Of a DNA stretch of 11,251 nucleotides, positions 8,589 to 11,124 are shown piece by piece (positions within the stretch are counted from its first letter, which is position 1; the number at the start of each line of letters is the position of its first letter). A model generated the notes under the pieces. That model did no database searches. It was not told where the DNA came from and saw nothing but the letters and a program-made list of their open reading frames with translations. The position numbers were made by a program, and so were the translations under genes. Source of the DNA: a virus (Duplodnaviria; Heunggongvirae; Uroviricota; Caudoviricetes); the IMG/VR virus record IMGVR_UViG_2713896736_000010. One strand, given 5' to 3'.

Positions 8589-9854
8589 TTACTGGGCGTA
8601 ATTCTGTTTCAGTCCACGGATAAACTGAGATGCAGATGAAGCACTTTCATCTCTGGCCTGTTCCCCCCTAGCCTTTTGAATACGGAGAAAATTCGCATAC
8701 CCGTTCTCCAGCAATTTCTGATTCTGAGGCTCCAGCATTTCAGGCTGACGGGCCGCTACATTTCTGGCAAATGACAGCTTATCAGGATCATCTCCCGCCC
8801 AGTTGATAACCTGTTGCTGAAGTTTTTGTTGCTGAATTTTCTGTTGATGCGGTTGTGAACCAGTCGCAGCATAATATTCATCCACCGCAGCCTGTGCATT
8901 ACCGCCATTCTTGATCGCGTCCGCCGCTACGTTGCTGGCCCCCTTCTGAAGCTCTTTCAGAGAAAGTCCCTGCTGCTTCGGCATAAAATAACCATAATTT
9001 TTCGATATCTCTGCAAATTTGCTGCGATCCCTGACCTGAGCGATAGCCTTATCAACGGGTATCGCCAGCACGGTTTGATCATCAGGGTGCGCACTGCCGT
9101 ATTCTGTTACAGGTTTATGCGCGGTGGAGCCATCGCTGTATGTGAGATCAAGGCCAATAAGTACGTACCCTTCCTGCTGCGCCGGTACGATACTGCCAAT
9201 CCTGGCCTCTTTTATCGTTTTTTCCCCGGTTGAATCAGGCATGCCAATACGCTGTTGTAGTTCCGGGGCAAACACGCCGGAAAGCACATCGAGATTTTCC
9301 GGGGTATTCAGCGAATCGATCGCCATGTCCGGCTTATCACCAAAGATTTTTTGCAGGTTGATCACGGCCTGACCCGCTTTCGCTGCATAGCCTTCGTTTG
9401 ACATAAGAATTAATGGATGTCCCTTTGGCAGCTGCCCGAACAGACGCGTTGCAGCCTCCTGATCGCCAGCCTCAATTGCTTTTCCAAGCGCTTCCATTAG
9501 TGGCTGGCTATGGGCAATCATATCGTTATACTCAAGCCGTCGCTGGTTGTATTTTTCCAGTTGCAGTCTCTGCTGAGATAGCCCAAGTGACGCATTTCGA
9601 TAATTCTGCGCTGCTTTGTGTTCCCTCTCTTTCAGCGCATATTCACGGTCAGCATTCCTGACATTAAGATCATATGTACGCTGATCATTCTCTTTTCGGT
9701 GCTCAAACTGCGACTGCGCAAATTCAAAATCGCGCTCGTTATTTTTCTGTTGCTGAGCAAGCTGTGCTTCTCGCAAACCAAGCTCCTTACGACGGGTCAT
9801 TGCCTGGTCAACGGTGCTGAATCCGGCAAGTAACCCCTGTGCAAATCCGCTCAT
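8589..9854 (-). CDS. Hypothetical 421-aa protein with a highly charged, coiled-coil-like N-terminal half (possible scaffold or ejection/structural protein)
   Basis: ORF from the track. ATG at 9852-9854 is preceded by GGAG with a 6-nt spacer, directly after the upstream gene's TAA. The N-terminal segment is rich in E/K/R/Q heptad-like sequence. Confidence 0.8.
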   Translation of the reverse strand: MSGFAQGLLAGFSTVDQAMTRRKELGLREAQLAQQQKNNERDFEFAQSQFEHRKENDQRTYDLNVRNADREYALKEREHKAAQNYRNASLGLSQQRLQLEKYNQRRLEYNDMIAHSQPLMEALGKAIEAGDQEAATRLFGQLPKGHPLILMSNEGYAAKAGQAVINLQKIFGDKPDMAIDSLNTPENLDVLSGVFAPELQQRIGMPDSTGEKTIKEARIGSIVPAQQEGYVLIGLDLTYSDGSTAHKPVTEYGSAHPDDQTVLAIPVDKAIAQVRDRSKFAEISKNYGYFMPKQQGLSLKELQKGASNVAADAIKNGGNAQAAVDEYYAATGSQPHQQKIQQQKLQQQVINWAGDDPDKLSFARNVAARQPEMLEPQNQKLLENGYANFLRIQKARGEQARDESASSASQFIRGLKQNYAQ

Positions 9855-9864
9855 TCACCACTCC

Positions 9865-10158
9865 TTAAAACAAAGCGCCTGCAATGCCGCCAATCACAGC
9901 ACCAGCAGCTATCCCGACGGGACCAGCCCATGCTCCGAGCGTGGCCCCCATTGCAGCGCTGGAGCCTGCCACAGATGCACCCACAGCAGCCCCCGTACCA
10001 ATGCCCGTGGCGATATTCTGTTTTTTCTGAGCTTTCTGCTGCGCCGCCATCATCTTGTTTGACGCCTCAATTTCTTCACGTCGTCTGTCTGCCTCGCTTA
10101 TTCCCTGTAATGCCTCACGCCGCGACTGATTTGCAATATCCAGTAAACCGTATCCCAT
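9865..10158 (-). CDS. Small 97-aa membrane protein with C-terminal glycine-zipper hydrophobic region
   Basis: ORF from the track. AGGAGG sits 5 nt upstream of the ATG at 10156-10158. The C-terminal ~48 aa (nt 9868-10014) are almost entirely G/A/V/I/S with repeated GxxxG/AxxxG spacing; the N-terminal part is charged. Confidence 0.75.
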   Translation of the reverse strand: MGYGLLDIANQSRREALQGISEADRRREEIEASNKMMAAQQKAQKKQNIATGIGTGAAVGASVAGSSAAMGATLGAWAGPVGIAAGAVIGGIAGALF

Positions 10159-10167
10159 ATTTCCTCC

Positions 10168-10614
10168 TTACGCTGCCACCAGTTGTCCGCCAACACTCAG
10201 TTTCTGTCTTGCCGGTGCAGAAGCCCCCGTCAGAATATTCATCTGGCGATCCTGTTCGGCTTCACGGATACCATTTTTCGCGCCAGCAATTGCCAGGGCA
10301 TTACGTAACCCCAGCGTATTACTGTCGGGATTATCCGGGCGGCTTACCCCGTATCTCGCCATCTGGTTATCCTGCGCCATCTGCGCTGTACGGAGACTGG
10401 AAGTGGCAAGGCCGCCCACCCGGGCAAGCTGTGCATTCATCAGGCTGTTGTTCTCGCCAAGGTCAGCCAGCCTTGCTACACGGGGTAAATATCTGGTGCG
10501 CCAGTCGTCGTATTGCTGGCGGGTCAGCGCTGCGGATGTCTGCCAGTCCCCCTGAGGGCGGGCTGCTCCGGTATAACCGTATCTCGCAAGTGTTTCGTAT
10601 TTACCGTACTCCAT
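10168..10614 (-). CDS. Hypothetical ~148-aa protein (start probably ATG at 10612-10614; the track uses GTG at 10618-10620)
   Basis: ORF from the track. GGAG lies 9 nt upstream of the ATG at 10614. Its stop is 9 nt upstream of the next gene's start, consistent with translational coupling. Confidence 0.7.
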   Translation of the reverse strand: MEYGKYETLARYGYTGAARPQGDWQTSAALTRQQYDDWRTRYLPRVARLADLGENNSLMNAQLARVGGLATSSLRTAQMAQDNQMARYGVSRPDNPDSNTLGLRNALAIAGAKNGIREAEQDRQMNILTGASAPARQKLSVGGQLVAA

Positions 10615-10616
10615 AA

Positions 10617-11124
10617 TCACAGTCTCCAGTTCTGAGCCTGATACTGAATGGCATTAGCGCCGGTGCCAGGTGTTTTAGCACCGCCACTTCCTCCGCTACC
10701 ACCAGCCTTATGCATCGCATATGCACCTACCGCACCCAAACCAGCGCCAACAAGAGAGGCTCGCCCCTGCTGTTTCGTAAACGCAGCCTGTGCGTCCGAT
10801 TTAGCTTTTGCCAGACTGCTGTCTGCCAGCGAGTTAAAACTCTGTAACGCATCCGCCTTCTGACCTGAACCGAGAGCTGCAACATCCTGTAGCCCGGCAA
10901 CATACTTATCTGCCTGCGATACCTGCCCCCGTGTGGTTGTGTCAATCTGCCCGGTTACCTGATCACTCTGGTTCGCATTCATTACCGCGTTAAAGCGACC
11001 ACTGGACGGGTCAACACCGGACTGAGCAAGATTACCCGCCAGCTCCTTCCGTGCTTCGCCAAACTGTTTCTGATACCCCAGATTTGTGGTGCCAGCAATA
11101 TTGTCGTACTGCTGCTCACTGTTC
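10617..11124 (-). pseudogene. Gly/Ala/Ser-rich protein gene whose 5' end appears truncated by the IS insertion (the intact remnant could also be expressed from the internal ATG at 10982 as a 121-aa protein)
   Basis: The minus-strand frame of the 10617..10982 ORF stays open with no stop codon upstream through 11124 and into the IS end, with no further start codon. This suggests the original N-terminus lay where the IS now sits. TGA stop at 10617-10619. Confidence 0.45.

Follow-up and report, generated by a model that had tools for sequence, protein, structure and literature searches.

Four small genes and a giant polyvalent-protein gene as a probable ejection-protein cassette of Stx-converting podophages

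Introduction

Short-tailed Stx phages spread Shiga toxin (Stx) genes among Escherichia coli, and after BamA binding their DNA has to cross the envelope. The canonical podophage ejection triad consists of a protein of ~200 amino acids (aa), one of 431–982 aa and a large protein, and ejection-protein groups share only 7–19% identity (PMC8954989); missing similarity is therefore weak evidence against an analogy, yet it bars a claim of membership. Here we analysed an 11,251-nucleotide (nt) stretch of viral DNA, hereafter the window (IMG/VR record IMGVR_UViG_2713896736_000010), in which four small minus-strand genes, g1 to g4, precede a giant gene. The sizes and order of these genes fit the triad, and the consecutive order of a small membrane protein, a mid-size helical protein and a large protein was found; the giant lies far above the size range given in PMC8954989.

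The same genes have been studied in two relatives. For phage Sp5, Mondal et al. (2016; PMC5155283) constructed in-frame deletion mutants; its open reading frames (ORFs) ORF76 (218 aa), ORF77 (148 aa), ORF78 (83 aa), ORF79 (421 aa) and ORF80 (2793 aa; Table S1 in PMC5155283) map onto g1–g4 and the giant. A preprint from 2026 on phage phi24B (doi 10.64898/2026.04.10.717836) described a T=9 head and a tail model of portal, two adaptor rings, nozzle, lateral fibres and needle. The original prediction for this window, which was made from the sequence alone, had recognised none of the four small genes; they are known as Sp5 ORF76–79 and phi24B gp51–48, with published knockouts and detection by mass spectrometry (MS).

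We propose that g1–g4 and the giant probably make up the internal-virion (ejection-protein) cassette in Stx podophages of the 933W/Sp5/phi24B type. By analogy, the cassette would correspond to P22 7/20/16 and T7 14/15/16; its large component would be a polyvalent giant, and g2 and g3 would be additional gp7-like fragments. Gene identity, synteny and the homology of a module of g3 with P22 gp7 were observed here, and virion presence and knockout phenotypes were taken from the literature; from these we infer that the proteins lie inside the virion, are ejected and insert into membranes, what each of them does, and how a hairpin upstream of the giant functions.

Results

Identity and gene layout of the window

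Window positions 8400–11124 were 100% identical to the Stx-converting podophages vB_EcoS_P27, PA28, phi345, Stx2a_F723 and others, and matches of 80–100% were found in over 250 records of Stx and related phages. Judged by these matches, the window is the late-region end of a Stx-converting podophage (Sepvirinae). Intact P27 carries on one strand tail fibres, lom, a hok-like gene, gp56 (125 aa), gp55 (218 aa), gp54 (148 aa), gp53 (97 aa), gp52 (421 aa) and the giant gp51, annotated as 'LPD5 domain-containing protein', after which the integrase follows. The features of the window are listed below.

11125..11251, plus strand: IS629 left end, 127/127 identity to the IS629 of Stx2a_F765
10617..11124, minus strand: g1 remnant, codons 50 (third base) to 218 of a 218-aa protein (Sp5 ORF76/ECs1238, P27 gp55, phi24B gp51, phrog_611)
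10168..10614, minus strand: g2, 148 aa (Sp5 ORF77/ECs1239, P27 gp54, phi24B gp50, phrog_596)
9865..10158, minus strand: g3, 97 aa (Sp5 ORF78/ECs1240, P27 gp53, phrog_594; 'bacteriocin' in RefSeq)
8589..9854, minus strand: g4, 421 aa (Sp5 ORF79/ECs1241, P27 gp52, phi24B gp48, phrog_601)
8532..8554, minus strand: terminator-like element in the g4–giant spacer, a hairpin followed by seven T residues
145..8520, minus strand: giant, 2791 aa from the annotated ATG (Sp5 ORF80/ECs1242, P27 gp51, phi24B gp47, phrog_616)

The four co-oriented minus-strand ORFs predicted upstream of the giant ORF (8589–10982) are real, and the first of them is the remnant of a 218-aa gene cut by IS629. The gaps of 9–10 nt claimed for all of them hold for the g2–g3 spacer (9 nt) and the g3–g4 spacer (10 nt), which also carry the strong Shine–Dalgarno (SD) sequences that had been pointed out, AGGAGG before g3 and AGGAG before g4. 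On the other hand, g1 and g2 are 2 nt apart, with a GGAG located within g1, and 68 nt separate the g4 stop from the annotated ATG of the giant (8520).

The five proteins belong to PHROG families 611 (g1), 596 (g2), 594 (g3), 601 (g4) and 616 (giant), all listed there with unknown function. Pfam and NCBIfam scans assigned no family to g1, g2 and g4, and matches to EcsC, LTM and choice_anch_Y were noise. When the g1–g4 family profiles were compared with PDB sequences, nothing was found below E 0.02, the best match being that of the g3 zipper to a tape-measure protein. A defence-system scan and an Rfam scan were negative, without any meaningful defence-system match, and Last protein searches returned chiefly near-identical E. 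coli copies. The profile and structure searches that had been suggested for the small proteins thus linked the g3 zipper to P22 gp7, as described below, and gave no fold relative for g4 and no Pfam/NCBIfam family for g1, g2 and g4.

Published mutants and virion proteome

In Sp5, the ΔORF79 (g4) and ΔORF80 (giant) mutants gave no plaques and no lysogens, and both defects were complementable; their heads were normal, with DNase-resistant DNA at the wild-type level (PMC5155283). The ΔORF76 (g1) mutant still formed plaques, with markedly reduced infectivity and lysogenisation, and ORF77 (g2) and ORF78 (g3), deleted singly, were not among the defective mutants (PMC5155283). The full but non-infectious heads of ΔORF79 and ΔORF80 are the phenotype class of ejection-protein mutants.

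The phi24B preprint (doi 10.64898/2026.04.10.717836) provides a virion proteome together with the cryo-electron microscopy (cryo-EM) model, from which g1–g4 and the giant are all absent. Peptide-spectrum matches (PSMs) in the virion numbered 10962 for the giant, 1634 for g4/gp48, 523 for g1/gp51, 129 for g2/gp50 and 13 for g3 (an 86-aa ORF), as compared with 2226 for the portal. From these counts we obtained crude length-normalised copies per virion of ~23 (giant), ~37 (g4), ~32 (g1) and ~48 (g2); this scaling reproduces known stoichiometries within 2–5x. The g3 protein was seen via the peptide EALQGISDADR, and it is under-sampled in MS because its zipper half is a single tryptic peptide of 37–51 residues. 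No peptides of the protein from the upstream gene g0 were found among the phi24B proteome entries listed. About 40% of the particles imaged by cryo-EM were empty. The preprint also reports that diffuse density in the adaptor lumen vanishes on ejection, and its authors propose the giant gp47, which is abundant and invisible in the map, as an ejection protein (doi 10.64898/2026.04.10.717836). Note that the main text of the preprint discusses only gp47; gp48, gp50 and gp51 are unmentioned, though by spectral counting they equal the portal in abundance, and the proteome supplement (ORFs 46349–49114) labels the g4 homologue 'Transcription factor?'.

These data bear on the structural interpretation of Mondal et al., by which the filled head needs g4, the giant and perhaps g1 for its short tail to be built or stabilised, with no action of these proteins after ejection. 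Such a role would agree with the DNA-filled ΔORF79 and ΔORF80 heads that were not labelled by an antibody against the tail fibre (ORF67), as well as with the position of the genes at the end of the tail-gene region. However, the phi24B model explains the whole tail without g1–g4 and the giant, though these are abundant in the virion, and DNase-resistant DNA at the wild-type level implies a closed portal. We consider this interpretation unlikely. It is also compatible with an ejection cassette, as internal proteins reaching into the tail lumen could secure tail attachment as well.

The g3 zipper and its likeness to P22 gp7

As the original prediction had described for the 97-aa protein, with a slightly shorter estimate of ~48 aa, g3 consists of a charged N-terminal helix followed by a 49-aa glycine zipper that ends in ...GALF-COOH. 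The last 49 residues include 0 charged residues, 13 Gly, 15 Ala and seven GxxxG motifs, and the Kyte–Doolittle maximum over 19 residues of the zipper is 1.76. Two transmembrane (TM) domains are annotated for g3 in P27, and a single-sequence structure model (predicted local distance difference test, pLDDT, 65) shows a helical protein interrupted at a conserved GP.

Among 23 g3 family members, 22 matched Gly-zipper_YMGG (Pfam), and 17 matched P22_gp7 (Pfam PF25688, P22 DNA ejection protein gp7) at E<=0.1 (best E 1.7e-6). Sub-threshold PF25688 matches of shorter g3 homologues fall on the C-terminal third of the model; for two members the scores were 14–18 bits, over profile positions ~146–230 only, as compared with a gathering score of 28 bits. 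A match to PF25688 over its full length above 28 bits was not obtained with g3, and g1 gave no match to this model.

When the g3 family was compared by hhalign (profile–profile) first with P22 gp7 and next with the gp7 family, the probabilities were 92–95% and the E values 6e-7 to 1.9e-8. Both C-termini are brought together in the alignment (...PWGAxIGxGxGLLxSLF-COOH), P22 gp7 ending in ...PWGAAIGGGIGLLGSLF and g3 members in ...PWGAVIGAGVGLLASLF. Reversed-sequence controls, which preserve composition and GxxxG periodicity, gave only E 0.011–0.035, indicating that the match is specific and not a generic zipper likeness. On the strength of these alignments, the C-terminal module of g3 is homologous to that of the P22 ejection protein gp7.

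The length of g3 in the E. coli/Stx lineage varies by 7-residue steps (83, 90 and 97 aa), and the window, at positions 9865–10010, carries the longest common form. The extra residues of the longer forms fall within the zipper, and because of these inserted residues the 97-aa g3 alone misses Pfam models that the 83-aa form matches.

The two proteins encoded upstream of g3 were compared in the same way. The hhalign comparison of g1 (13462–14118 of locus L001) with g2 (window 10168–10614) gave E 3.4e-5 and a probability of 72%; the two are probably distant paralogues. A 277-aa virion protein of Ralstonia phage Eline, gp50 (L087 2029–2862), matched both the g1 profile (E 3e-12) and the g2 profile (E 2e-6). 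For g2 and gp7, E was 0.012–0.079. The N-terminus of g1 (GGSKGGGD..AAQ..W..YKN.L.P) marginally resembles the mature N-terminus of P22 gp7 (E 0.002).

The g3 gene is named 'bacteriocin' in RefSeq, and the 'bacteriocin homolog' that the phi24B authors discounted as a contaminant, on annotation alone (doi 10.64898/2026.04.10.717836), is for this reason most likely the g3 homologue. If the label were correct, g3 would be a bacteriocin or a lysogen-expressed membrane protein (toxin, superinfection exclusion) unrelated to the giant. Apart from the label and its use by the phi24B authors, weak matches of 9/23 g3 members to Pfam Bacteriocin_IIc (best E 5.6e-4) point in this direction. However, these matches are confined to the zipper, and the same members match Gly-zipper_YMGG and P22_gp7 equally or better. 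In addition, the N-terminus of g3 (MGYGLLDIANQSRRE) has no double-glycine leader (judged by eye, with no export signal predictor), there are no immunity or export genes nearby, all neighbours being virion genes, the defence-system scan gave no meaningful match, and g3 occupies a fixed place within a translationally coupled late-operon block in every locus. We regard a bacteriocin or toxin role of g3 as highly improbable, and the gp7-like module is read here as part of the ejection cassette.

The g4 protein and the giant

The N-terminus of g4 (MSGFAQGLLAGF) is conserved, and D/E/K/R make up 35% of residues 17–115. The AlphaFold2 model shows one helix of ~106 residues (10–115), a helical region, a small beta domain (213–266) and a helical C-terminal part, so that the charged coiled coil seen earlier in the 421-aa protein is borne out as a charged helix. 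The model was built from a 19-sequence alignment and is of moderate quality (pLDDT 70; predicted template modelling score, pTM, 0.40). None of the hhalign comparisons of g4 with gp20 (E 0.35), the giant with gp16 (E 0.02) and g0 with gp14 (E 0.04) was significant. At 50% identity, the g4 family falls into 206 clusters in a set of 1.84 billion representatives. One protein, P0306 (1386 aa), has a g4-like N-terminal part of ~260 residues fused to a tail of ~1100 residues; it was rejected as a g4–giant fusion, as its C-terminal 1000 aa match neither giants nor Pfam.

The giant contains the Pfam domains LPD38 (1.7e-48), LPD5 (5e-43), LPD1 (7e-24) and MuF_C (1.3e-17), all of which pass the cut-offs. 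With several unrelated domains and a gene among virion genes, it is a phage-type polyvalent protein. It has two HExxH motifs, at residues 1282 and 1549, and its most conserved part is the C-terminal ~900 aa. The presence of MuF_C and LPD domains, typical of head-packaged, injected proteins, supports the ejection-cassette reading. No segment of the giant exceeds a Kyte–Doolittle value of 1.4, and any membrane insertion would therefore not proceed via classical TM helices.

Domains of this kind also raise a serious rival, which is compatible with the ejection-cassette reading. In phage P1, Hdf, DarA and DdrA load the 2255-aa DarB into the procapsid, and the dar genes are dispensable on non-restricting hosts. 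By analogy, the small proteins would be procapsid adaptors that recruit and package the giant as a polyvalent (anti-defence) protein. The LPD/MuF_C architecture of the giant, its weak match to a 'DarB-like antirestriction' PHROG (E 3.5e-29) and the DarB-like annotation of Ralstonia relatives are in line with such a loading role, as are the strict co-occurrence of the small genes with the giant and virion copies of the small proteins that exceed the need of a single channel. However, without g4 and the giant K-12 is not infected at all, in contrast to the dispensable P1 dar genes, and g1–g4 resemble nothing other than the tail of P22 gp7, their relation to Dar proteins having been sought by PHROG and Pfam scans only. 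The glycine-zipper/gp7 link also indicates membrane action, not capsid scaffolding. Weighing these points, we take a Dar-like loading role seriously but consider it rather improbable. A chaperone role, which had been suggested as well, found no support.

Co-occurrence and conserved gene order

A tblastn search with g4 found distant homologues (24–27% identity) in ~100 Vibrio phages and in Aeromonas phage phiARM81mr, where genes for proteins of ~125, ~205, ~120, ~80, ~466 and ~3100 aa follow in this order, each pairwise homologous to its Stx counterpart. An IMG/VR scan with the g4 family yielded 80 loci of 22–100% identity, and the genes in these loci were located by iterated hidden Markov model searches. 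The order g0-g1-g2-g3-g4-giant, on one strand, was present in all 80 loci where the contig reaches far enough. The exceptions were contig ends, locus L034 without g1 (the sole internal one) and several split giants, which are likely frameshifts. Co-occurrence had been set beforehand as the check on a link between the small genes and the giant, and it held: among these g4-selected loci, g1–g4 genes without the giant were found in none, wherever the contig reaches far enough. In the reverse direction, the C-terminal ~900 aa of the giant also occur in Ralstonia GP4-like, Burkholderia, Bacillus and Pasteurella phages.

In some lineages, an additional 1–2 kb of DNA, unannotated in phiARM81mr, separates g4 from the giant, and in Vibrio phage D80 g3 is followed by an oppositely oriented HNH endonuclease gene before g4 begins. 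The insertion-bearing loci are L004 (13802–15659), L003 (13079–13870), L061, L066–L068 and L078. The cassette thus tolerates insertions at these two junctions only.

A scan of genome contigs found two loci, one in Aeromonas rivipollensis and one on a 552-bp contig labelled Xanthomonas pisi. The latter (NZ_JPLE01000287.1, strain DSM 18956; L085) encodes the first 136 residues of g4 with 86% identity to the E. coli phage protein, and it looks like enterobacterial phage DNA contaminating the assembly rather than a Xanthomonas prophage.

A hairpin between g4 and the giant

The small genes had been thought to be co-translated with the giant, which is contradicted by the 68-nt spacer and the conserved terminator-like hairpin that it carries. 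Specifically, the stem-loop CCGGC-cattgt-GCCGG (8554–8539) is followed by seven T residues (8538–8532), the SD sequence GGAG (8529–8526) and the ATG of the giant (8520). Note that the program-made ORF list opens the giant at a TTG at 8547 (2800 aa), which lies within the hairpin; the annotated ATG with its SD sequence gives 2791 aa.

We surveyed 37 non-identical spacers from related loci for a perfect GC-rich stem of >=6 bp with a T-run, located <=160 nt from the g4 stop. Such an element was present in 29/37 spacers (equivalents in L005–L084), the stem sequences being unrelated among loci. As controls, it occurred in 4.5% of random windows, in 0/37 cases after the g1, g2 and g3 stops and in 17/37 after the g0 stop. 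No Rfam family matched the hairpin of the g4–giant spacer. Given the spacer, the conservation of its hairpin and the low controls, g1–g4 make up a compact block with translational coupling and a hairpin on either side, distinct from the giant, which is a separately tuned unit. The hairpin probably lowers expression of the giant relative to the small proteins; it may act by transcription attenuation, or it may stabilise the upstream mRNA. In Stx phages, as in lambdoid late transcription generally, the Q-antiterminated late transcript should read through terminators of this kind.

Disruption of g1 by IS629

The first ORF of the window (121 aa, 10617–10982) corresponds to residues 98–218, the last 121 codons, of the 218-aa g1 protein, and it aligns only to positions 97–218 of its 218-position PHROG. 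The g1 frame is open upstream to 11124, where similarity to intact phages ends and IS629 starts; window positions 11125–11251 are identical (127/127) to the IS629 annotated in phage Stx2a_F765. The terminal inverted repeat begins TGAACCGCCCCGG, and the ATG of the transposase gene orfA is located at 11179 on the plus strand (MTKNTRFSPEVRQRAIRMVLESQ...), so that IS629 is antisense to the operon. IS629 cuts the 657-nt g1 gene at nt 150 (junction 11124/11125), and g1 is therefore a pseudogene in the window. The exact IS629/g1 junction was absent among 5,426 complete E. coli genomes. In another Stx phage (Stx2a_F765, L002), IS629 sits within g4, not g1, indicating at least two independent IS629 hits on the cassette.

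The product of the first ORF had been called Gly/Ala-rich, in agreement with its 34% Gly+Ala, and g1 has a conserved Gly/Ala hydrophobic helix close to its C-terminus (LVGAGLGAVGAYA). Considering the phenotype of ΔORF76 and a possible polarity of IS629 on g2–g4 and the giant, the prophage of the window probably gives poorly infectious particles. IS629, which is abundant in O157, repeatedly strikes the cassette, and this bears on whether a Stx prophage still makes infectious particles.

Discussion

In the ejection model that we favour, g1, g2, g3, g4 and the giant polyvalent protein would be produced late and packed into the T=9 head at about portal-level or higher copy number, and they would lodge within the capsid and the lumen of the tail, unresolved in symmetric cryo-EM maps. 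Release of the tail needle at the BamA receptor would allow the cassette proteins to be expelled before the DNA or together with it. The glycine zippers in g3 and g1 may then insert in a host membrane, like proteins of the P22 gp7/T7 gp14 class, and the long-helical g4 may oligomerise into a periplasm-spanning part, analogous to P22 gp20/T7 gp15. The giant would serve as the large inner-membrane/cytoplasmic component, analogous to gp16, with enzymatic 'polyvalent' domains in addition. For release at infection and assembly into a trans-envelope conduit, the sole hint is the lumen density lost in emptied phi24B particles. Co-occurrence, virion presence and the gp7-like module broadly uphold the original prediction of accessory or channel partners for delivery of the giant, with the change that DNA is the likelier cargo and the giant a co-ejected component.

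Several points weigh against this model. The main unexplained one is that ΔORF79 and ΔORF80 particles were without anti-tail-fibre (ORF67) antibody labelling (PMC5155283), which speaks for a part in assembling or stabilising the tail, not predicted by a pure ejection model; it suggests that g4 and the giant also stabilise tail attachment, perhaps via the lumen density lost on ejection. Furthermore, g2 and g3 are singly dispensable in Sp5, unlike P22 gp7 (PMC5155283). In the proteome, the virion signal of g3 is essentially one peptide, and the MS of purified virions also detected Lom (23 PSMs; doi 10.64898/2026.04.10.717836). The placement of g1–g4 inside the capsid and their ejection are inferred. 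On the side of similarity searches, the 97-aa g3 of the window has no Pfam match by itself at E<=0.1, and g1 compares only marginally with the N-terminus of gp7 (hhalign E 0.0021–0.0023, probability 12–13%; reversed control 0.02–0.09). In addition, g4 has no sequence or fold relative among gp20, gp15 and solved structures, and hhalign found no significant similarity between the giant and gp16. The structure models of g3 (pLDDT 65) and g4 (pLDDT 70) are of moderate to low confidence.

A more speculative extension, which we rate as doubtful, is that g1–g4 form a protein-translocation kit that loads a ~310-kDa polyvalent effector into the head and threads it through the tail and both host membranes. 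In such a kit, g1, g2 and g3 would descend from a gp7-like ancestor by duplication and splitting, g4 would be a tunnel of novel fold, and the hairpin would set the stoichiometry of the small proteins to the giant. If true, the kit would be a distinct ejectosome class for giant cargo in Escherichia, Salmonella, Aeromonas, Vibrio and partly Ralstonia podophages.

As an ejection cassette, ORF76–80 would present concrete targets for blocking Stx-phage transmission. This reading also offers a way to reconcile the 'tail' phenotypes of 2016 with the virion proteome of 2026.

We finally compared the cassette with known systems. The T7 proteins gp14, gp15 and gp16 follow a like plan: a membrane protein of ~200 aa, a helical tunnel protein of middle size and a large multifunctional protein with enzymatic domains. 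Their genes are consecutive, and the proteins are packed into the head and later ejected (PMC8954989). However, no sequence or fold similarity was found between the two sets, and no ordered core stack was seen on the phi24B portal. Phages of the N4-like type (Schitoviridae) are also T=9 podophages in which a giant of ~3000 aa is packaged and expelled with smaller ejection proteins (PMC13434306; PMC12633501); the giant described here differs in lacking an RNA polymerase domain (LPD5, LPD1, MuF_C and LPD38 only, by Pfam), and the small proteins are unrelated in sequence.

With respect to polyvalent proteins and P1 DarB, the giant is a textbook phage-type polyvalent protein (Iyer et al., 2017; PMC5512222). 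Unlike DarB, it is essential for infection and not an accessory anti-restriction factor, and conserved small-gene partners are not described in the passages of PMC5512222 consulted. The closest structural relatives of the phi24B head and tail are podophages of the Ralstonia GP4/Cimandefvirus type. They too have a giant (4514 aa in Eline), whose C-terminal ~800 aa are shared at 26–28% identity, and a 277-aa virion protein encoded two genes upstream of it fits the g1 and g2 profiles. They differ in having no detectable g3 or g4 homologue and in that cysH and acetyltransferase genes interrupt the cassette.

The differences from P22/Sf6 are that detectable homology covers a module of 32–37 residues only, that the cassette has two extra small proteins and a large component 4–5 times longer with LPD/MuF_C domains, that gp7 is essential whereas g2 and g3 are dispensable, and that the P22 head is T=7 and the head here T=9. 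On the other hand, the P22/Sf6 order 14 (151 aa), 7 (229 aa), 20 (471 aa) and 16 (609 aa) parallels g0 (~125 aa), g1 (218 aa), the inserted g2 and g3, g4 (421–540 aa) and the giant. Both systems have virion proteins that are unseen in symmetric maps, and their mutants yield full, non-infectious heads. The C-terminal zipper of g3 is specifically similar to the gp7 C-terminus, including the terminal SLF, and this gp7-like zipper ties the Sepvirinae system to the well-studied P22 system.

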